64,000 nt of DNA from Octopus vulgaris. Taxonomy: Eukaryota. How positions within the stretch are numbered: position 1 is the first letter of the stretch; each line of letters opens with the position of its first letter. The position numbers and the translations under genes were made by a program. Positions 29,378-61,841 of this stretch are shown piece by piece. The stretch is from assembly GCA_951406725.2 (NCBI GenBank), contig OX597821.1, forward strand, positions 44,640,001 through 44,704,000, in the 5' to 3' direction. The notes below the pieces were generated by a model. It worked only from the letters and a program-made list of their open reading frames with translations. It had not been told where the DNA came from and did not search any database.

Positions 29378-30530
29378 GTAAGTAACTCATTATTTTTATA
29401 ATTTATCTTTGCAATGATTATTGTGTTAACATACACTACACACCGCTCAGTTTACCTTTTAATAAAAATACACTTATTCTCTACAGCCTCAATCTCATTC
29501 ATAAAACATAACATTTTATTTCCTCGATTACTTTTCTTTCCTAAAAGACTGCAATTTTACTATATCCATTCTTTGCTAAAATCTGACTTCTAAGATTTTT
29601 CAGCAGGCAATTAATTTGTCGTCATCTTTGAATGACATAAGACCAGGAAATAAAAAATATTTAATGCAGCTGACAGGGCCAAGACTGGAATAGATAGCGA
29701 TATAGAGATTTGAACAGGTCAAGAAATATGGAGTGATGTTGTGACTTTATGCAGCAACAATTTTAATTGTCATTTTTAACTGATATTGATTACAAGCCAT
29801 ATTAAAGGCTTTACATCACTTAAATCCTGGTTATTTTTCTTATGTTCTTATATAATAATAGTGTATGTTTAGGGTAAATAGAACTGGTTGGAGGTGAAAT
29901 TGGTGCAGATAATAGGTAATTGAAGCATAGTGTACAGCAGAAATCTATGAAGAGAAATGGAATTTGACAACTGCTTGTTTGCAAAAATGGCAAGGCTCAT
30001 CATGGTTTGAATTTAGGTAAAGACTGTTTGGAACTTTACCTTTTCAACTAAAGGCACAATTATTAATATAATTCATGGGAATATGACAAAACATTTTCAT
30101 TTCTAATTATTTATTGCAATAGAAAGAATTACAGAATTATTTAGTACCAATTAAAATTCATTTGATATTTTTTCAGATTCCAGAAATCTAATTTTTTCAT
30201 ATATTTACAAAATATGTTTGTCAGTTCTATCAGTTTGCTTTATTAAGAATTTATTCATGTGTAAATGTTGCTTATTTTTTCACATTCAATTTTACTATAT
30301 CCATTTATTGATTCTTAACTAGTAGAACTTTCCTGGAATTTGTCCCCTTGTGACTAGCTACTGATATAGCAACAGTCTTGTTCTTCCTCAATGTAACACT
30401 AAAGACAGCAGAATCAATAAACACTAGCCACATGATTCGCTATAATTCATAAAACCATTTTAATTTTTGAACATTTATGCAAGTTAATCAAAGTGTTTTG
30501 TGATGATGAATTTTTGTCATTTCTCTTTAG

Positions 30531-30951
30531 GTGGGACCACATTCTAACAGATCTCAACTGTAAAGCCCCAGACTTTCTTGATATTCGCAGACTGGAAAGA
30601 GGGATTCGTCAAAGAAAAAATCTACAGAAGCTTTTTGATAGCAATGACCATTGTATTCTAACATTCCAGAAGTGCCAAAATGACCAGGAAATGGTAGCTG
30701 AAGATGCAGATGATGACGATGACGATGATGATGATGGAGATGAAGAAGAAGAATATGATGAATCTCCACCACAAGAGATCATTGGTTTAAGTGATGATGA
30801 TGAAGAAGATGAGGAAGAAGATGAACAGTGCCTATTAACTACTACAAGACCTCCAAAAGAAAGTCAGGATGGTGACCGTTTAGAAAAAGAAGAAGAGGAA
30901 TTATTAGAAGGAGACATGGATGCAGATGAAGATTATGATAACATTCTCTGA
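30531..30951 (+). CDS. BIVM: BIVM-family gene, last coding exon (conserved domain end plus D/E-rich tail)
   Basis: Acceptor ctttag at 30530. Encodes WDHILTDLNCKAPDFLDIRRLERG...HCILTFQ (cf. [24 protein letters not shown]...HCIIAFQ). Stop TGA at 30949-30951. The joined CDS is 1854 nt, 617 aa. Confidence 0.95.
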
Positions 30952-41962: not shown

Positions 41963-43135
41963 ATGAGCAAACCAAGTAAAGTGAAGATTCATCAGTATTC
42001 ATTGGAAATTTTGAAGTTTGGGTTTATTCCCACTGTGCACAGTAAACACACACCATTCTGCTTATTGTGTCATGAGACATTGACTAATGAGCCAATGAAG
42101 GGAGGCTGACTGAAAGTACACCTGAGAGTAAAGCATCCCAATCTCGCCAATTCAAATTTGGAATATTTTAAGTCACTAAAAGAAAAATTTGAAAATTGAT
42201 AAAAAAAATCTCTAGATTATTCTCTGTACAAAATGCAACCCACAATCATACTCTTGAAGCAAGCTATGAAATTCTTCTGATCATAGCAAAGCCTGGAAAG
42301 AATCATACTATTGGAGAGGAATTGATTAAACCAGTTATCTCAGTATTTTTAAAAACTGATACAAAAGGATGATAAAGATCTTATGGCCATGCTGCTGAGT
42401 AATAACACTGTCTGCAAAAGAATTGATGACATGGGGAAAGATGTTGAAGAACGGCTAATTGAGAAACTGAAATCATTGAAATTTTCAATACAAATGGATG
42501 AAGCTACCTTTAAGAATAGTGATGCTCTGTGATTGGCATATGTGAAGTATATTGATCAAGAAGAGTTTCAGGAAGAGATGTGGTTTTGTGAATCAGTAGA
42601 AATGACTGTTACTACAGCTGATTTCTACAGCAAACTGAAGAAATTATTTGGATTCAAACAAAATGCCAAAAGGAAACATTATATCATATGCTGAAAACTG
42701 ATGAAGGAGGAATATCCAAACATGTTGACTGTACATTGTGTTATTATCCACTGAGAAAACTTGATTGCCAAGAAAATTTCCCCTGTTCTTCACAAGATTC
42801 TGCAATCTGTGATCAAGTGTGTTAACGCCATCAAATCAAGTGTTACATTTGGATGTCTTTTTAAGCTGTTCTGTGTGAATCAAAGTGCAGTACATGTTTG
42901 ATCATTACTTCATACAGAAATTGTCAAAAGGAAGTTACTTGAAGAGATTCATGGAGTTATTTAATGAGCTCAGTGAGGTTTTGAACACAAAACTGAAAGG
43001 AAGTTTCTGTCAACAACAGATAGCAAGGCATATGTCAGGTATTTGACAAACATCTTTGAGAAATAAGCAACTTAAACAAACAACTCCAAGGAGCAAATAT
43101 AACTCTTGCTGATGCAAAAACAAAGATTTTCAGCC
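41963..43135 (+). mobile_element. Degenerate hAT transposase of Buster/ZBED5-SCAND3 type
   Basis: PFCLLCHETLTNE (BED-like finger), KNHTIGEELIKP, LSNNTVCKRIDDM, FSIQMDEAT, HCVI and LLLHTE, with stops and frameshifts. Confidence 0.88.
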
Positions 43136-44082
43136 ATTCATTTTCTAAATGATAGGACACTTCCCTATAGTTTGAACAAAATTTCTATAAATCCTTGCAC
43201 AGAAGCCTTTAATCAATATCTATAAAGCTGAAATGTGAAAAAGTTGTTTGATTTCTTGGTTATTTGTTTCACTTTGGGATGGGAACGGTTTAAGGGGTGG
43301 TAGATGGGGTTGGATTGGCACCAAAATTTACACTGGGGGGTAAAATGGGGTGGGCAATGGTGTGAGGAGGGTTGCAAGTTGCTCGGGGCTACCATTTTGT
43401 TGCCATCACCACCAAAACCCGAGCAAAGCAAGGGTCAAAATAGTTTATTTCTATTTTTCATTTTAAATTGAATTTTAACTGTTTGCATCTGAAAATTTTT
43501 CAGAAATCTAACATAGAAAATACTTTTCAAATCACTTTATCAAATGTTGTTTGAAATTTCTGGTGAAATTATTCAAAAGGCTAACCAATTAGCTTTTTGG
43601 ATCTAGTGTAATATTAAAATTACATAGCATCTGGTATATACAAGGACAAGGCCTTATGGTGGAACATGTTGGAGAAATATATCATTAACAACTGCTATTT
43701 TATAGTCAGGCCTGATAAACTACTAACGAGTTAGCTTTTTTGAATCCAACATGATGCGCTACATAAAATATTTAGTGTAAGTCAATTAGGAATAGACTGT
43801 TGAGGAAAGGGCTTCTTTGAGATTGACAAACTACAAAGTACAGATTCAAAAAGATTATCACAAGAAATTCAGGAGGTAAGATTAGTGCCCAGAATGAAAG
43901 GCAAATTATGATTTATGTACTTAATTTTAAACATATTTATTTTGGTTAATTTTCAACAGTTAATTAAACTCATCAAATTTATATGATTAACAATCAATTG
44001 AAATGACATCAGAGAAGTACTAACGTCTTAATTTGATTGCTTAATTGATCAAATGTTGTATATTTTTATTGAATTTTGTGTT

Positions 44083-44160
44083 CTTTGTATTGAATTTTGA
44101 CTTTTAGATTGTTTGATATTTCAACATTTAGCTCATTAGAGTTTTCTGACAAATCTGCAT
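44083..44160 (-). pseudogene. Decayed second ubiquitin repeat
   Basis: MQI follows GG directly. After a frameshift another frame reads [18 protein letters not shown] (cf. ubiquitin [21 protein letters not shown]). Confidence 0.7.
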
Positions 44161-44388
44161 ACCACCTGGCAGTCGATAAACTAAGTACAGTGTTGTCTGG
44201 TTTTCAATTTCATAGTCAAAAAGTGTTTTGTCATTTTCTAATTCTTTTCCATTATAGAGCAAATGTTGTTGATCTGGTGGAATACCTTGGTGATTTTCAA
44301 TTTTAGCTTTTACATTTTCAATAGTATCTGAAGTATGAACTTCTATAGTAATAGTCCGGCTTTCCCATGTCATTATAAAAATCTGCAT
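44128..44388 (-). CDS. Divergent ubiquitin paralogue (76-aa unit ending RLPGG plus 10-aa extension)
   Basis: Ungapped alignment to ubiquitin, 46/76 identical by hand count. A splice acceptor (ttttttatcttgtag) lies 4 nt before the ATG, as in polyubiquitin genes. AATAAA on the - strand at 44065-44070. Confidence 0.85.
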
Positions 44389-44534
44389 TTTCCTACAAGA
44401 TAAAAAAGAAAAATTTAATTAATATACACATTTACACATCCCTACTGAGAATCGCTGTATAAACATCAAAAGAATAAATTTGCAGTAATTAAGAGCTCAA
44501 TTAATAATAGGTCATTTAAACTCCAATCCATTAT

Positions 44535-44573
44535 TACATTGCAGTAAATCCCAACAGGATTTACTGCAATGTA
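44535..44573. repeat. 17-bp perfect hairpin
   Basis: tacattgcagtaaatcc-caaca-ggatttactgcaatgta. Confidence 0.9.
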
Positions 44574-44631
44574 TATGTATCATTTGTAAAAAACATAAAT
44601 CTGAAAGAAGCACACTGTAAGATGTAGAGCA

Positions 44632-45038
44632 ATATATATTGAAAATGGGGAGGGCTGGTTTATGGGATTACCTTGGGTTTCCAGTCCATAAAGGGATGCT
44701 TTGTGGCATACTCCCAGATCCCAAAAACCTGTTGGCCCAAGACCTCTTAAAAATACGGAGGAGGAAATGTCTCACTACTCAACGGTAACAATTGGGGATT
44801 ATCTCCCTTTGCTATCAGCTACTGACTTCTGAGTATCGACTTCCAATAGCTGATAGCGAAGGGAGATAATCCCCAATTGTTACCTTTGAGTAGTGAGACA
44901 TTTCCTCCTCCATATTTTTAAGAGGTTTTGAGCCAACAGGTTTTTGGGATCTGGAGGTATGCCATAAAGCTAAACCCTTTATGGACTGGAAACCCAAGGT
45001 AATCCCATAAACTAGCCTTTCCCATTTTTAATATATAT
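44632..45038. mobile_element. Fold-back/MITE-like element: about 190-bp inverted arms with a 25-nt loop
   Basis: 44632-44821 is the reverse complement of 44847-45038 apart from scattered substitutions. It is flanked by TA runs. Confidence 0.85.
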
Positions 45039-45822
45039 ATATATTTCCCTAGAATAGCTTAACATATTCACAGACCCCCACCACCCAGTACTACATTTGT
45101 GGACCATCAGAGATCTGCAGACCACAGGTTGGGAAGCACTGATATATATATCATCATCGATAATTAACATCCATGTTCAAAGCTGGCATAGATTGGACAG
45201 TTTCACAAGGATGCAATGGATCAAAGGCCTGCATCATGCTCCAGTATCTACTTTGGCATGTTTTCTGTGGCTAGATGCATGTATGCATGTATACACACAC
45301 ACATGTACATGCGCGTGCACACACACACACGCACACATACAAACAAACAAACAAAAGTCAGGAGTTACGAGAAGTGAATATCTTTATTTAATCATTTGAC
45401 ATCCTTGAATTATTGATATAACTATGATGTTCTGGTGATCTGTTGAGCTAGCTTTCTTTATTTGTACTGATTTGTGAATATACAGTTGTACTGTATAATG
45501 GTCAGCATACATTTTAATGCAAACATATATACATAATTTCTTCCATACTAAAATCATGATTACATATAGAATGCTGCAAAATGGTTGCAATCCTAAAGAT
45601 GTCACGTAGTTAAATAGATATATTCACTTCTCATACCTCCTAACTATTTATGTCTTATATACTTCTCAGGAAATAGTTTCATCTATCAGATCTTCTGGAT
45701 TTCAACTGTATAGTCATTCTGTGTTAAACTTCTCTGTATTGGACTATTATTACAGTTAGCCAAGTCTGTAAGAGGAACTTTCTGTGATAGCCATACAATT
45801 CCTTGAATCCCTATCTTAAACT

Positions 45823-45870
<48 letters not shown>

Positions 45871-45872
<2 letters not shown>

Positions 45873-46191
45873 GCAAGTGTCTTCTACTATAGCCTCGGGC
45901 CGACCAAAGCCTTGTGAGTGGATTTGGTAGACGGAAACTGAAAGAAGCCCGTCGTATATATGTATATGTGTGTGTGTCTGTGTTTGTCCCCCCTAGCATT
46001 GCTTGACAACCGATGCTGGTGTGCTTATGTCCCCATTACTTAGCGGTTCGGCAAAAGAGACCGATAGAATAAGTACTGGGCTTACAAAAAGAATAAGTTC
46101 CGGGGTCGAGTTGCTTGATTAAAGGTGGTGCTCCAGCATAGTCGCAGTTAAATGACTGAAACAAGTAAAAGAGTAAAAAAAGAGTAAAAGA

Positions 46192-46193
<2 letters not shown>
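45871..46193 (+). mobile_element. 5'-truncated copy of the same SINE family
   Basis: gggcaagtgtcttctactatagcctcgggcc...ggtggtgctccagcatagtcgcagttaaatgactgaaacaagtaaaagag. Confidence 0.85.
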
Positions 46194-46234
<41 letters not shown>

Positions 46235-46300
46235 GGAGTAAGCACATATATGTGAAACAAGGTGGAAAAAAGAGTACTCAAGTACCGGAGGTAGAGTAAT

Positions 46301-46404
46301 ATGCTTTATTTAAAAGCAGCAGAAATATAGCAAAAGCTGTTACACAGAGTTTCACATGAAACTCTGAGTAACAGCTATATTTCTGCTGCTTTTAAATAAA
46401 GTAT
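46301..46404. repeat. Palindrome in a short (TA)n-flanked element
   Basis: ctttatttaaaagcagcagaaatatagc...gctgttacacagagtttca / tgaaactctgagtaacagc tatatttctgctgcttttaaataaag. Confidence 0.9.
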
Positions 46405-46725
46405 ATATATATATATTACTATTACGATTCTGCAATTTAAATTCCCAGTTCAACTTACTTTCTTCTTCAATTTCAACTCCCGCTCGATGACCGCAGCAAG
46501 TTCTTAAAAATTTATCTTACTATATTTTTTTATTCGTTGTTACTACGTTTATTCATACACTGTTACGAAAATTTAACCTTTTTAGGCTACTTTCAAGCCT
46601 TCGCCATAACTTGATTTATCTTCCTATCTCTCTCTCTACAATATTTAACCGTAGGCTGCCTCAAGCCGTAATCCCATCTTTTTCCCATCTTTCAGCCATT
46701 GACGGTGCATCCGCCCCCCCACCCC

Positions 46726-46911
46726 CACCACCAATACCGTTGAACACTGTTCTCACCCCCACCACCAATACCGTTGAACACTGTTCTCACCCCCACCACC
46801 AATACCGTTGAACACTGTTCTCACCCCCACCACCAATACCGTTGAACACTGTTCTCACCCCCACCACCAATACCGTTGAACACTGTTCTCACCCCCCCCA
46901 CCACCAATACC
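46726..46911 (+). repeat. 34-bp tandem repeat, about 5 copies, in the RTE 5' UTR
   Basis: Unit ccaataccgttgaacactgttctcacccccacca starts at 46731, 46765, 46799, 46833 and 46867. Confidence 0.95.
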
Positions 46912-47000
46912 AGTATACCCCGTTCTCTCCATCTACACCGGATACGCCTTACTCATCTACACTGGGTACGCCCTACTCCCTCCTCCTCCCCCCACTACCA

Positions 47001-47298
47001 CTTCTCCTCATATGCTTAAGACAAGCTGCTAGCGCCATAGCTCATCAACTGCCCACCGATCTTACGCTTCCTCCTGACACTGCCTCAATCCGACCATCCC
47101 CTTTTAGTACCCTCCCGCCTCGTCAATCCGACCATCCCCTTTTAGTACCCTTCTCCTCATATGCTTAAGACAAGCTGCTAGCGCCATAGCTCATCAACTG
47201 CCCACCGATCTTACGCTTCCTCCTGACACTGCCTCAATCCGACCATCCCCTTTTAGTACCCTCCCGCCTCGTCAATCCGACCATCCCCTTTAGTACCC
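47001..47298 (+). repeat. 149-bp direct duplication in the RTE 5' UTR
   Basis: cttctcctcatatgcttaagacaagctgc... starts at 47001 and again at 47150. Confidence 0.95.
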
Positions 47299-47509
47299 TC
47301 CCGCCTCGTAATATCCTACGTTTTTATTTCTTAGGAACCTACACCAACCCTTCCTGCCATCGTTCCTCCTTACCCCAACCTTCCCCACTGGTTGCTCCCC
47401 TATATTACCCGCCTCAACTGGACCTCCCCAACTCAACTCTAGAATATCTGTATTTCTTTCCTCTACCTAATTACGTTACTCAGTGACGATAACAAATGTC
47501 CACTGCTAA

Positions 47510-50500
47510 CACCAGCTCCTGCCCACGGCGTGGTCAGGTTGGAAGAGAGATCAAAAGAAAAATACCACGAAAACTATCACCACCACTACAACCCTCCTCT
47601 TCTCAGGCGCCGAATCCCCCTGTCCCCCCCACATCTCCTTCCCAGTTTTCAGAGTTGGCACTATCAATGTTGGTACATTGACAGGCAAGTCTAGTGAGAT
47701 TGTAGAGATGCTAGAGAGAAGACAGGTTGATGTATGCTGCATACAAGAGGTAAGATGGAGAGATGCTTCGGCTAGGGTCCTCACGGGCAAGGCACTTAGA
47801 TACAAACTCTACTGGCAAGGTAACGCGGAAGGTGTAGGGGGTGTAGGCATTCTCCTTGCGGAGGAATGGGTGGATAAGGTCATAGAGGTTGTCAGGGTTT
47901 GTGATAGAGTGCTTAAGCTCAGGTTGGTCCTACAGAGTGGCACAGCTATGATTATCTCAGCCTATGCCCCACAAGCGGGACTACCAAATGATCAGAAGGA
48001 CAACTTTTATGATACCCTTCTGCAGGCTACTTCAAAGACTAGTAACAAGGACCTCATCTTTGTAGGTGGAGATTTTAACGGGCATGTTGGGCGGGAATCG
48101 GGTATCTTCACTGGGGTACATGGTGGATATGGTATTGGCACCAGAAATGATGAGGGAACTAGACTACTGGAATTCTGTGATGCATGTAACCTTTCAATCT
48201 GCAACACTAACTTCAAGAAGCCAGTCTGCCACCTTATAACTTATCAGTCAGGAGACTCCGCTAGCCAAATAGACTTCATCCTCACCAGACAACGGGATGC
48301 AGGGTTGCTCTTGAATACAAAGACCCTCCCGGGTGAAGAATGTATCCCTCAGCATAGACTAATCATCAGTGACTTTAAGCTTGAGGCCAGAAGGACTCCA
48401 AGAAACAAACCAATCCAGAAAAGAAGGATTTGGAGGCTAAAGAACCCTTCGCATGGTCAGAAATTTAGGGACATACTCATCAAGAAATTTGATGAGAGGG
48501 AAGAGGAGCTTCAGACGTCAGACATAGAAGGTAGCTGGGAATTCCTACGGGACAGCTTGTTGAGTGCCACAGACCAAGTTTGTGGATGGTGCAAAGTCCC
48601 TTCCAGACCTAGAATTACGTGGTGGTGGAATAGTGCAGTAGATAAAGCCATCTGTGAAAAGAGACGGGCCTGGAAAGCCTGGAAGGATGGGGGCAGCAGG
48701 GAACTGTACCAGATAGCCAAAAGGGAGGCTGGGCGGCAGGTATACATTGCCAAAGATGTAGCAGAAAAGAAGAAGTTTGCCAATGTCCAGCGTCGCGAGG
48801 ATCAAAGAGCTGAAGTATTTCGGATTGCCAGACAGTGTGTCAGAGAAAATAGCGATGTTATAGGAGAGAAATGTGTCCGCATGGATGATGGGGCACTTGC
48901 TTTTACTACTAGTGAAAAGAAAGAGGCTTGGAGAAGCCATTATGAAAGACTGCTAAATGAGGAGAATGAATGGGAGGAGGAGAGCCTGCCAAATGTTGAC
49001 CCAGTAGAGGGACCAGCTACCCGAATAGACAGCTCCCTTGTAGATAAGGCAATTAAGGATATGAAACCAGGCAAAGCCCCTGGCCTATCAGGAATCACTG
49101 CTGAGATGCTTAAAACAGCTGGCTATGTGGGCCATGCCATAGTCACCCGCATTGTAAACCAGGTAGTTCACAATGGAGCCATACCCAATGACTGGTGCAG
49201 CAGTACCATAGTCAACTGCTACAAGGGTAAGGGTGATGCTCTAGATAGAAATAACTACAGAGGTATCAAACTGTTGGACCAGGTGATGAAGGTCTCAGAG
49301 AAGGTCATAACCAATCTCATTAGGGAGAGAATTTGTTTAGATGAAATGCAGTTCGGTTTTGTACCAGGTAGAAGCACCACTGATGCTATATTCCTGGTCC
49401 GACAACTGCAGGAGAAGTACCTAGCTAAAGATAAACCCCTCTACATAGCTTTTGTAGACTTGGAGAAAGCCTTTGACAGGGTTCCCCGTTCCCTTATCTG
49501 GTGGTCGATGCGGAAACTGGAGATTGAAGAATGGCTAATAAGGGCTGTACAGGCTCTATACAGAGAGGCTGTTAGCAAGGTTAGGATTGGCAACGAATAT
49601 AGTGAAGAATTCCGAGTAGAAGTAGGTGTGCACCAGGGCTCAGCCCTCAGTCCCCTTTTGTTCATCATAGTCCTTCAAGCAATAACAGAGGAATTCAAAA
49701 CGGGATGCCCCTGGGAGCTCCTCTATGCCGATGACCTAGCTCTCATAGCAGAATCACTACCGGAACTAGAAGAGAAATTTCGGGTATGGAAGCAAGGGTT
49801 GGAATCAAAGGGCCTTAGAATAAATGTAGCAAAGACCAAAGTATTAGTAAGCAGCAAGAGGTACTCAACACACATCCCCTCGGGTAGGTGGCCCTGCTCA
49901 ACCTGTAGGAAAGGTACAGGTAGAAACTCCATAAGATGCACCCAATGTAAGTTATGGACACATAAGAGGTGCAGCAACATTAAAGGGAAATTAACAGATA
50001 AGATAGCTTACATGTGCGGCAGATGCACAGGGACAATAGACACAACAGACACTCAGAAAACAGATTCCATCACACTCCAGGGAGAGAAACTAGAAGTAGT
50101 TGATAGTTTCCGCTACCTGGGAGACCAAGTTAGTAGCGGAGGTGGATGCACAGAGAGTATCACCACTAGAATACGAATAGCCTGGGCAAAGTTCAGAAAG
50201 CTCCTACCCCTACTGGCAACAAAAAGCCTCTCCCTCAGAGCAAAAGGTAGATTATATGATGCATGTGTGCGAACTGCCATGCTTCACGGTAATGAAACAT
50301 GGGCTGTGACTGCAGAAGACATGCGTAGACTTGAAAGAAATGAAGCTAGCATGATCCACTGGATGTGTAGTGTCAGTGTGCACGCAAAACAGAGTGTAAG
50401 TATCCTGAGAGAAATGCTGGATATAAGAAGCATCAGATGTGGTGTGCAAGAGCGACGCTTGCGATGGTATGGTCATGTGCTGCGGATGGATGAAGAGAGA

Positions 50501-50815
50501 TGTGTGAAGAAGTGCCACTCCCAAACAGTTGAAGGTATCAGGGGGAGAGGTAGACCCAGGAAGACATGGGATGAGGTGGTCAAGCATGACCTCAGAGCAT
50601 TGGGCCTCACTGAGGCAATGGCGAAGGACCGAGATCTCTGGAGATATGCTGTGACTACAAAGACCCGGGCTGCTTTCTGCAGCAATTCCACATACCCCCT
50701 ACCCATTCTAAGTACCCCGGATCCCCAAAGTACCCCGGATCCCCAAAGTACCCTGGATCCCCAAAATACCCCGATCCCCAAAGTACCCCGGACCTCGTTG
50801 CCCCCGTGCCGCTGA
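47510..50815 (+). CDS. RTE LINE ORF: AP endonuclease, reverse transcriptase and PHD-type Zn finger
   Basis: Stop-free frame from 47510. Motifs: GTINVGTL, CCIQEVRW, GGDFNGHVG, NYRGIKLL, QFGFVPGRST, FVDLEKAFD, GVHQGSALSP, YADD (49724-49735), FRYLG and RGRPRKTW. Confidence 0.95.
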   Translation, partial: HQLLPTAWSGWKRDQKKNTTKTITTTTTLLFSGAESPCPPHISFPVFRVGTINVGTLTGKSSEIVEMLERRQVDVCCIQEVRWRDASARVLTGKALRYKLYWQGNAEGVGGVGILLAEEWVDKVIEVVRVCDRVLKLRLVLQSGTAMIISAYAPQAGLPNDQKDNFYDTLLQATSKTSNKDLIFVGGDFNGHVGRESGIFTGVHGGYGIGTRNDEGTRLLEFCDACNLSICNTNFKKPVCHLITYQSGDSASQIDFILTRQRDAGLLLNTKTLPGEECIPQHRLIISDFKLEARRTPRNKPIQKRRIWRLKNPSHGQKFRDILIKKFDEREEELQTSDIEGSWEFLRDSLLSATDQVCGWCKVPSRPRITWWWNSAVDKAICEKRRAWKAWKDGGSRELYQIAKREAGRQVYIAKDVAEKKKFANVQRREDQRAEVFRIARQCVRENSDVIGEKCVRMDDGALAFTTSEKKEAWRSHYERLLNEENEWEEESLPNVDPVEGPATRIDSSLVDKAIKDMKPGKAPGLSGITAEMLKTAGYVGHAIVTRIVNQVVHNGAIPNDWCSSTIVNCYKGKGDALDRNNYRGIKLLDQVMKVSEKVITNLIRERICLDEMQFGFVPGRSTTDAIFLVRQLQEKYLAKDKPLYIAFVDLEKAFDRVPRSLIWWSMRKLEIEEWLIRAVQALYREAVSKVRIGNEYSEEFRVEVGVHQGSALSPLLFIIVLQAITEEFKTGCPWELLYADDLALIAESLPELEEKFRVWKQGLESKGLRINVAKTKVLVSSKRYSTHIPSGRWPCSTCRKGTGRNSIRCTQCKLWTHKRCSNIKGKLTDKIAYMCGRCTGTIDTTDTQKTDSITLQGEKLEVVDSFRYLGDQVSSGGGCTESITTRIRIAWAKFRKLLPLLATKSLSLRAKGRLYDACVRTAMLHGNETWAVTAEDMRRLERNEASMIHWMCSVSVHAKQSVSILREMLDIRSIRCGVQERRLRWYGHVLRMDEERCVKKCHSQTVEGIRGRGRPRKTWDEVVKHDLRALGLTEAMAKDRDLWRYAVTTKTRAAFCSNSTYPLPILSTPDPQSTPDPQSTLDPQNTPIPKVPRTSLPPCR
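50710..50792 (+). repeat. 18-bp tandem repeat at the end of the RTE ORF
   Basis: agtaccccggatccccaa, about 4.5 copies, translated as STPDPQ repeats. Confidence 0.9.
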
Positions 50816-60199: not shown

Positions 60200-61841
60200 A
60201 GCTACTGGCCCTGATGGATTCCCAGCAATCCTTCTAAAAGTATGTAAGCGAATCCTAGCAAGACCACTGCAGTTCCTCTTTCAGAGCTTCCTTGCAACTG
60301 GCAAACTTCCAAGAAAACTGAAGGAGGGTAAAATATGCCCTATTCATAAAGGAGGTAGCAGAGCAGAGGCCAAGAACTACAGACCTATCTCTCTGACCTC
60401 ACACATCAGCAAGGTCATGGAACAAATATTCAGAAAGAAACTAATCACCTTCCTTGAAGAAAATGGCTTTCTGCCTGACACCCAACATGGTTTCCGACGA
60501 GGAAGAAGCTGCCTAACTCAGCTCTTACAACACTATGACTGGGTGCTGAAACAACTGGTCAACCACTCAACTGTGGAAGTGATATATCTCGACTTTGCAA
60601 AGGCCTTTGATAAAGTTGACCATGGAATATGTCACAAACTGCATGATCTTGGCATAATTGGAAAATTGGGAGAATGGCTTCATGACTTTCTGAAGGATAG
60701 AAGTCAGGTGGTAGTAGCCAATGGGGCCACCTCCAAAGACACGCAAATAGTGAGCGGTGTTCCGCAAGACACTGTTTTGGAACCACTGCTGTTCATAATG
60801 GCCCTCTCAGACATGCCCTCAGCCACACAGAGAGCCACGATAACAAGTTATGCAGATGATGCAAAAGTTTCACAGGTAATACAGAACCCTGAAGACACTA
60901 TGCACCTGCAATGTGAGCTGGATGAAATATACAAGTGGGCTGAAAAGAATAGCATGCAGTTCAATGCTGAAAAGTTTCAAGCTTTATGCCATCAGCATGC
61001 AAAACTAAATGCAATACCCAATAAATACACTGGACCTGGAGGAATTGCAATCCCAGAGGCACAATCAGTGCGAGACCTGGGCATTTACATGAGTAATGAT
61101 GCAACCTTTCATGTGCATGTTGCTAAATTGGCAATGAAATGTAGGCAGCTGACCGGATGGATTCTTAAAACTTTTAGAACAAGAGACCAGGAAACCATGA
61201 TGATCCTCTGGAGAACACTTGTCCTAAGCCACTTTGACTATTGCTCTCAGCTATGGTCACCAACCAGTATGTCAAATTAATCTCAGAACTTGAGGCAATC
61301 CAATGAAGCTACACGAAGAAGATAGCCTCTATGCAGCATATAAGCTATTGGGAAAGACTCAAGAGGTTAAGACTCTATTCCTTAGAGCATAGGCAAGAAA
61401 GATATGCCATAATATACATCTGGAAGATTCTGGAAGGACTTGTCTCAAACTTTGGCATTGAGAGTTACACAAATACTAGAACTGGGCGCCACTGCATAGT
61501 GCCAAGGACTCCAAATTTGCCATCAAGATGTAGGACCAGATACTGCAATAGCCTGGGCTTCAGAGGTTCACAGCTCTTCAATATCCTCCCGAAAGACTTG
61601 AGAGACTTGCATGGGGTAGATGTAGGTGTCTTCAAAATAAAGCTGGACCTCTTTCTGTCAGGTGTCCCAGATGAACCAACTTCGCTGCAGGAGGTGCAGA
61701 TGAGGGCAGCTGCATCAAACTCTTTCATGCACCAAATGTCAATTGCTAAAAAGCATTCGTGAAGTAAAATCATGTAGCAACACCAAATGGCGGTGCCCCA
61801 GCATGGCCACAGCTCGTGAGCTGAAACTAGATGGAAAAAAA
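60200..61841 (+). mobile_element. 5'-truncated CR1-group (CR1/L2/Daphne-like) LINE, frameshifted RT
   Basis: GPDGFP, NYRPISLTS, QHGFRRGRSC, YLDFAKAFDKV, SGVPQ, YADD, RDLG, SYWERLKRLRLYSLE. The 3' end is ggcggtgccccagcatggccacagc...ctgaaac. Confidence 0.92.

Follow-up and report, generated by a model that had tools for sequence, protein, structure and literature searches.

The locus and its transcript

The window, the whole 64,000-nucleotide stretch of Octopus vulgaris DNA that was analyzed, carries on its minus strand an 86-codon open reading frame (44388-44128), whose parts are collected in Table 1. Residues 1 to 76 aligned without gaps to the polyubiquitin units of the same genome, with 46 of 76 positions identical (60.5%), in agreement with the original prediction of an indel-free 76-residue unit about 60% identical to ubiquitin. 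The Pfam ubiquitin profile PF00240 matched at 84.8 bits (curated cut-off, 25.4; E value, 3.4e-24), which places the protein in the family. The features of canonical ubiquitin (a near-invariant sequence, an LRLRGG end, the Leu8-Ile44-His68-Val70 patch, and seven lysines) were not found. All of the substitutions that had been listed from the sequence were present (K6M, K11R, K33H, K63N, L8W, I44L, H68Y, R42H, and R74P), the alignment likewise bore out the retention of K27, K29, K48, R72, G75, and G76, and there were 21 more changes, including L71Y, G53D, S57F, and A46N. Three of the seven lysines thus remain, the patch residues are now W8, L44, and Y68, and the net charge goes from 0 in ubiquitin to -6 in the O. 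vulgaris protein (-3 in P0047, the counterpart described below). The hydrophobic core, which the prediction held to be kept, was aliphatic in both species at 14 of the 14 positions that we take to form the ubiquitin core. A single-sequence structure model had a mean pLDDT of 71.5 and TM-scores of about 0.7-0.8 to ubiquitin structures, consistent, at moderate model confidence, with a ubiquitin (beta-grasp) fold with an intact core. The prediction of an RLPGG end was wrong as regards the C terminus: the Gly-Gly is internal, and ten residues (44160-44131) follow it. A di-glycine at or near the C terminus marks type I modifiers, and in both species G75-G76 is there, but under a ten-residue cap.

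Table 1. Features of the ubiquitin-like gene (window positions)
Feature	Position	Strand	Basis
Polypyrimidine tract and AG splice acceptor (AG 44394-44393)	44393..44420	-	Sequence; exon from 44392
Ubiquitin-like unit, 76 codons, no stops or gaps	44161..44388	-	46/76 identical; Pfam; structure model
Residues 72-76, Arg-Leu-Pro-Gly-Gly; internal di-glycine, Pro at P3	44161..44175	-	Identical five residues in P0047
Ten-residue C-terminal tail and stop codon	44128..44160	-	Derived from start of polyubiquitin unit 2
Decayed second ubiquitin unit (tail plus 3' UTR); near-neutral internal control	44008..44160	-	Alignment to about nt 174 of the unit
First AATAAA, within decayed unit; contigs extend beyond it	44065..44070	-	Sequence and contigs
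Second AATAAA, probably the likelier poly(A) signal	43936..43941	-	Sequence and contig ends
Putative last exon	43828..44393	-	Contigs from 4/4 compared runs

The polyubiquitin-style acceptor just before the ATG and the downstream AATAAA, both noticed earlier, were confirmed. The AG stands 4 nt from the ATG, the same spacing as in the polyubiquitin gene, and there are two copies of AATAAA. Contig records stopped at 43896-43922 in three of four runs and at 43828 in the other, although contig ends cannot prove where an RNA ends. The annotated 8-residue N-terminal extension of the database protein P0002, which P0047 does not have, maps 20,744 nt upstream, at G000:C8:44705137-44705156, a candidate first exon. 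This candidate adjoins the edge of a decayed DDE_Tnp_1_7 transposase element, presumably piggyBac-like, with a TTAA-flanked end (L019:1501-2720, G000:C8:44705135 onward). Because the annotated first exon lies at the edge of the element, a transposon-derived start of the gene is possible.

A word search found the stretch 43900-44600 in 20 of 24 listed sequencing runs. The share of its words was 0.94-1.00 in runs X1-X5 and 0.65-0.71 in 10 of the 14 runs presumed, as a guess, to be RNA, the exonic share of the query being 0.70; the other four presumed-RNA runs had none of its words. Contigs from 4 of the 20 positive runs were aligned to the window. Those of X9, X13, and X14 fit the genome from 44393 down to 43828, 44025, and 43922, respectively, and carried 109, 109, and 91 nonfitting letters beyond the acceptor (three studies, two organism labels); the X15 contig ended at 44392. 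Splicing would give contigs that depart from the genome at the acceptor, and we therefore counted these contigs toward transcription. The proposed check for reads spliced into 44392 was answered in part: presumed-RNA contigs leave the genome at the acceptor, but they did not display a splice joint directly, and no joint from 44393 to anywhere in 43000-47600 was among the contig matches listed. Depth was 0.7-2.3 in the presumed intron bin versus 14-44 in the exon, with missing cover not counted as evidence, and the sole coding difference listed was synonymous (44176, in X15). The gene is thus likely transcribed and putatively spliced from an upstream exon. In the available portions of its main text, a gonad transcriptome study (PMC11202624) does not name the gene.

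Other elements lie in the surrounding DNA. Just upstream of the acceptor (window 44625-45051 and 44420-44573) there are a long hairpin element, its arms of 127 and 64 nt being 93-94% complementary, and a short dispersed repeat that contains a perfect inverted repeat of 17 nt. On the opposite strand, within the presumed intron, an uninterrupted retroelement ORF of 1035 residues (window 47708-50815, plus strand) matched endonuclease, reverse transcriptase, and PHD-finger domains, and a second, broken reverse-transcriptase element lies at 60417-61762 (plus strand). Acidic, exon-like open frames without a Pfam match at 790-1449 and 30436-30948 (plus strand, opposite to the ubiquitin-like gene) are perhaps part of a neighboring gene that faces it. 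A frame without a Pfam match on the strand of the ubiquitin-like gene, some 80 kb upstream of it (L026:1242-1826, minus strand), encodes a hydrophobic stretch and, after it, PPxY-like motifs.

Origin from polyubiquitin and a candidate counterpart in O. bimaculoides

Protein, family, and DNA searches, which give lower bounds, found a single such locus in the genome, on C8. The parental polyubiquitin gene is on C3 (G000:C3) and has 11 units that are invariant in protein. Among these, unit 1 was the best DNA match (71% over 176 nt), and the match starts 19 nt upstream of the ATG. Downstream of the kept unit, 44160-44008 aligned to approximately 174 nt of a ubiquitin unit with a score that was reached by none of 300 DNA shuffles; the score of the corresponding protein fragment was reached by 4 of 1,000 shuffles. 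In alignments to 4 of the 11 polyubiquitin units, the remnant required 4-6 gaps versus 0 for the kept unit at gap-open penalties of -8 or -10, and 6-11 versus 2 at -5. Since the acceptor is kept, unit 1 is matched, and a remnant of unit 2 lies downstream, we read the gene from its sequence as a DNA-level copy of the polyubiquitin acceptor together with unit 1 and the greater part of unit 2, the latter having since decayed to form the tail and the 3' UTR. The head-to-tail second unit and the parent-like gene structure are those of a polyubiquitin-derived paralogue; the intron loss and disabling changes of a retrocopy were not found, the acceptor being kept and unit 1 being free of stops and indels. 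The gene resembles polyubiquitin genes of the UBB/UBC type in the acceptor 4 nt before the ATG, the intronless unit, and the head-to-tail arrangement. It differs from them in having one unit at 60% identity, Pro74, an acidic surface, and a unit 2 reduced to a ten-residue cap. A comparison of 204 kb around the gene with the 2.5 kb that precede the polyubiquitin ATG revealed no homology.

At codon positions 1 and 2, the distance of the remnant from polyubiquitin was 0.42-0.45 (0.75 under one mapping). With split times from PMC10700109, the duplication would be very roughly 90-250 million years old, with a wide error, and the offshoot is likely old. The kept and decayed units have 8-10 of 35-39 derived bases in common; these are clustered in codons 41-49 and include the R42H base, a pattern suggesting that some changes came before the decay, that gene conversion took place, or that both units drifted toward AT in parallel. 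In the parental array, units 3 and 10 are set apart from the rest by as many as 42 silent differences, and past its 11 perfect units the polyubiquitin ORF (L015) ends in a degenerate, internally deleted twelfth unit of 43 residues that finishes in LRGG plus one residue.

The gene is already annotated automatically in two species. P0002 (labeled Octopus vulgaris) was identical over all 86 residues, and P0047 (labeled O. bimaculoides), also of 86 residues, was 87% identical (11 differences). Start, stop, and tail length are the same in the two species, the tails differ at two residues, and Arg72, Leu73, Gly75, and Gly76 are common to both, with the Gly-Gly internal in each. P0047 carries some harsher changes (E24G, P38T, and D58A). 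It is treated here, from its protein sequence, as an orthologue candidate. The proposed search for orthologues yielded this one intact counterpart candidate and no others among the matches listed: the best 120 of 896 matches held no relatives beyond P0002 and P0047, none of 12 candidates from a longer-protein search qualified as an orthologue, and, the two records of the query and P0047 aside, all of the 239 proteins compared had 4 or fewer of 26 derived residues. An Atlas search returned generic ubiquitin clusters. Elsewhere in the genome, L014 (G000:C29:8844409-8844543) is an exon for a different ubiquitin-like domain, in which Gly-Gly is internal and position 42 is His; it resembles ZFAND4/ANUBL1.

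Selection on the kept unit

To our knowledge, animal ubiquitin hardly ever changes, and divergent copies are mostly dead. The presence of a kept unit beside a decayed one is a rare internal control, a natural experiment on the fates of ubiquitin copies. Neutral simulations were started from the polyubiquitin units and conditioned on 28-32 changes. The open frame was kept in approximately 0.10 of the runs and an all-aliphatic core in approximately 0.02, and runs that kept the frame open, the core aliphatic, and the Gly-Gly in place made up only 0.0003-0.0008. The mean BLOSUM62 score of the changes was +0.5, versus about -0.5 under neutrality (P < 0.001); for P0047 it was not above neutral (P = 0.12-0.15). 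Survival of Gly-Gly alone (approximately 0.3 of neutral runs) and retention of three of seven lysines (P = 0.28) were both unexceptional. The two species differ at 11 residues versus approximately 20 expected at a dS of 0.123 (P = 0.006-0.012), a result that loses significance should the local neutral distance be 0.08-0.10 (P = 0.04-0.27). The dN/dS check that had been proposed gave an approximate value of 0.46 between O. vulgaris and P0047. We rejected dN/dS versus polyubiquitin (dN about 0.30, dS saturated) as a test because the units of the array themselves differ at up to 42 positions. Frame and fold are likely under purifying selection.

Adaptive rewiring is another matter. The divergence of the kept unit at codon positions 1 and 2 was 0.30-0.35, close to that of the remnant and not separable from it under two of three mappings (Fisher P = 0.21-0.64); the surface changed at approximately 0.4-0.8 of the rate of the remnant. 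The "rewired surface" of the original prediction is therefore unproven, as the rate of surface change is not separable from neutral drift, and, because the divergence of the kept unit is close to that of the remnant, drift alone may account for the surface changes. The sites that changed on the stem gave a weak hint of present selection to maintain the new surface: 2 of 28 differ between the species versus approximately 6.6 expected (P = 0.024), with P rising to 0.13 when two ambiguous sites were added.

These results bear on the possibility, which we regard as a less probable one, that the gene is a near-dispensable duplicate, expressed at a low level, selected only against misfolding or interference with the ubiquitin system, and having no specific partner. 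The near-remnant divergence of the surface, the dN/dS of 0.46, and the radical changes in P0047 all suit such a gene. It would also have a parallel in Drosophila CG11700, a lineage-specific diverged duplicate of the polyubiquitin gene Ubi-p5E, whose CRISPR mutants had no effect on fecundity or lifespan and lacked the phenotypes reported earlier (PMC11789941). The fly gene is a young tandem duplicate with male-specific expression and a product of 301 residues, whereas the octopus gene has a single unit, is on another chromosome than its parent, and is likely old. Dispensability is opposed by the kept unit, which took no indel or stop while the neighboring unit took 4-6 indels, by the start, stop, and tail length, which stayed equal in the two species, and, to the extent given above, by the few differences at stem-changed sites. 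If the gene were dispensable, it would be an ordinary fast-evolving duplicate.

Processing of the tail and function of the protein

Conjugation of ubiquitin requires an exposed Gly76 (PMC8032880). Among the hydrolases, UCH-L3 shows a strong preference for Arg at P3, but a library screen in the same paper found wide P4-P3 specificity for deubiquitinases (DUBs) overall (PMC7477763); Pro at P4 gives ubiquitin resistance to many DUBs (PMC5419743). E1 accepts Arg72 variants with nonnative residues at 71, 73, and 74, but a nonnative residue 74 blocks transfer from E2 to E3 (PMC3731359). No published assay of R74P was found in our literature search. Taken together, the tail, the Pro at P3, and the loss of Arg42 and Arg74 lead us to predict that the protein is processed poorly and that its transfer to ligases is blocked. 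Given R42H, I44L, L8W, and the charge of -6, most ubiquitin enzymes and receptors should also bind poorly, judging from ubiquitin biochemistry. Exon-wise genome searches, which miss split exons and so give lower bounds, found one E1 catalytic-domain (PF10585) locus and three UCH (PF01088) loci, and no extra or private E1 or UCH locus was seen among them.

Predicted poor processing and binding, the ubiquitin fold, and the lack of any sign of private enzymes therefore favor a free, uncleaved protein. In the reading that we prefer, at a probability of about 0.5, the gene is a single-copy polyubiquitin offshoot that encodes a small, folded, acidic protein of 86 residues, which would remain unattached and act by noncovalent binding. 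The first coding exon of the polyubiquitin gene would have been duplicated at the DNA level, the transcript would be spliced from an upstream exon, and translation would start at the ubiquitin-type ATG. The ten-residue tail would not be cut off, since Pro74, together with the missing Arg42 and Arg74, takes away what ubiquitin hydrolases read; any molecule that was trimmed could load E1 and E2 via Arg72 and then stall before the ligase. The hydrophobic patch (Trp8, Leu44, Tyr/Phe68, and Val70), ringed by acidic residues, may bind partners other than the ordinary ubiquitin receptors, and Lys29 and Lys48 could accept chains, as in human UBB+1. Like the octopus protein, UBB+1 is a ubiquitin fold with a C-terminal extension; it is not itself conjugated but accepts chains, and it is reported to be trimmed even so by UCH-L3 (PMC8032880), which tells against a tail that stays on. 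It differs in being a product of mRNA misreading with G76Y and a native surface, whereas the octopus protein is genome encoded, with Gly76 retained and the surface altered. UBL5/Hub1, a small free ubiquitin fold outside E1-E2-E3 attachment (PMC8431670), may serve as a model for the mode of action; Hub1 is ancient and has no Gly-Gly.

A short removable tail is the usual design of modifier precursors, and the original prediction had suggested a modifier or a DUB-resistant or decoy ubiquitin. Under such a scheme, which we consider doubtful, octopods would have a private second ubiquitin: a tolerant protease would cut the tail, E1 would activate the product via Arg72 and Gly-Gly, Pro74 would make it a DUB-resistant tag or a sink that ties up E1 and E2, and Trp8, Leu44, and Tyr68 would have readers of their own. 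The constancy of Arg72, Leu73, Gly75, and Gly76 across both species and the tolerance of E1 for Arg72 variants fit this scheme, but Gly-Gly also survives in a substantial share of neutral simulations, and the Pro at P3, the loss of Arg42, Arg74, and Ile44, the net charge, and the absence of an additional E1 or UCH locus in the exon-wise searches tell against it. A precedent is UbKEKS, a variant from the human polyubiquitin copy UBBP4, formerly taken for a pseudogene, which is conjugated (PMC7066184); UbKEKS carries 4 substitutions, whereas the octopus protein carries 30, including tail and patch residues. Conjugation is not supported so far, with Gly-Gly capped and poor cleavage and blocked E2-to-E3 transfer predicted. 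Should the protein prove to be conjugated, animals would have a further, new modifier, and the engineered DUB-resistant L73P ubiquitin would have a natural counterpart.

It is highly improbable that the gene is a pseudogene or retrocopy that chance has left intact: the single copy away from its parent and the fast change would suit one, but the intron acceptor is kept, the contigs look spliced, the gene is intact in a second species, and neutral decay was rejected by the simulations. A dead retrocopy is therefore rejected, in agreement with the original prediction. Our literature search found no paper discussing the octopus gene, and the parts available of PMC7703385, PMC5706963, and PMC10531186 contained nothing on it. 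Divergent ubiquitins occur in Plasmodium too (PMC10457151).
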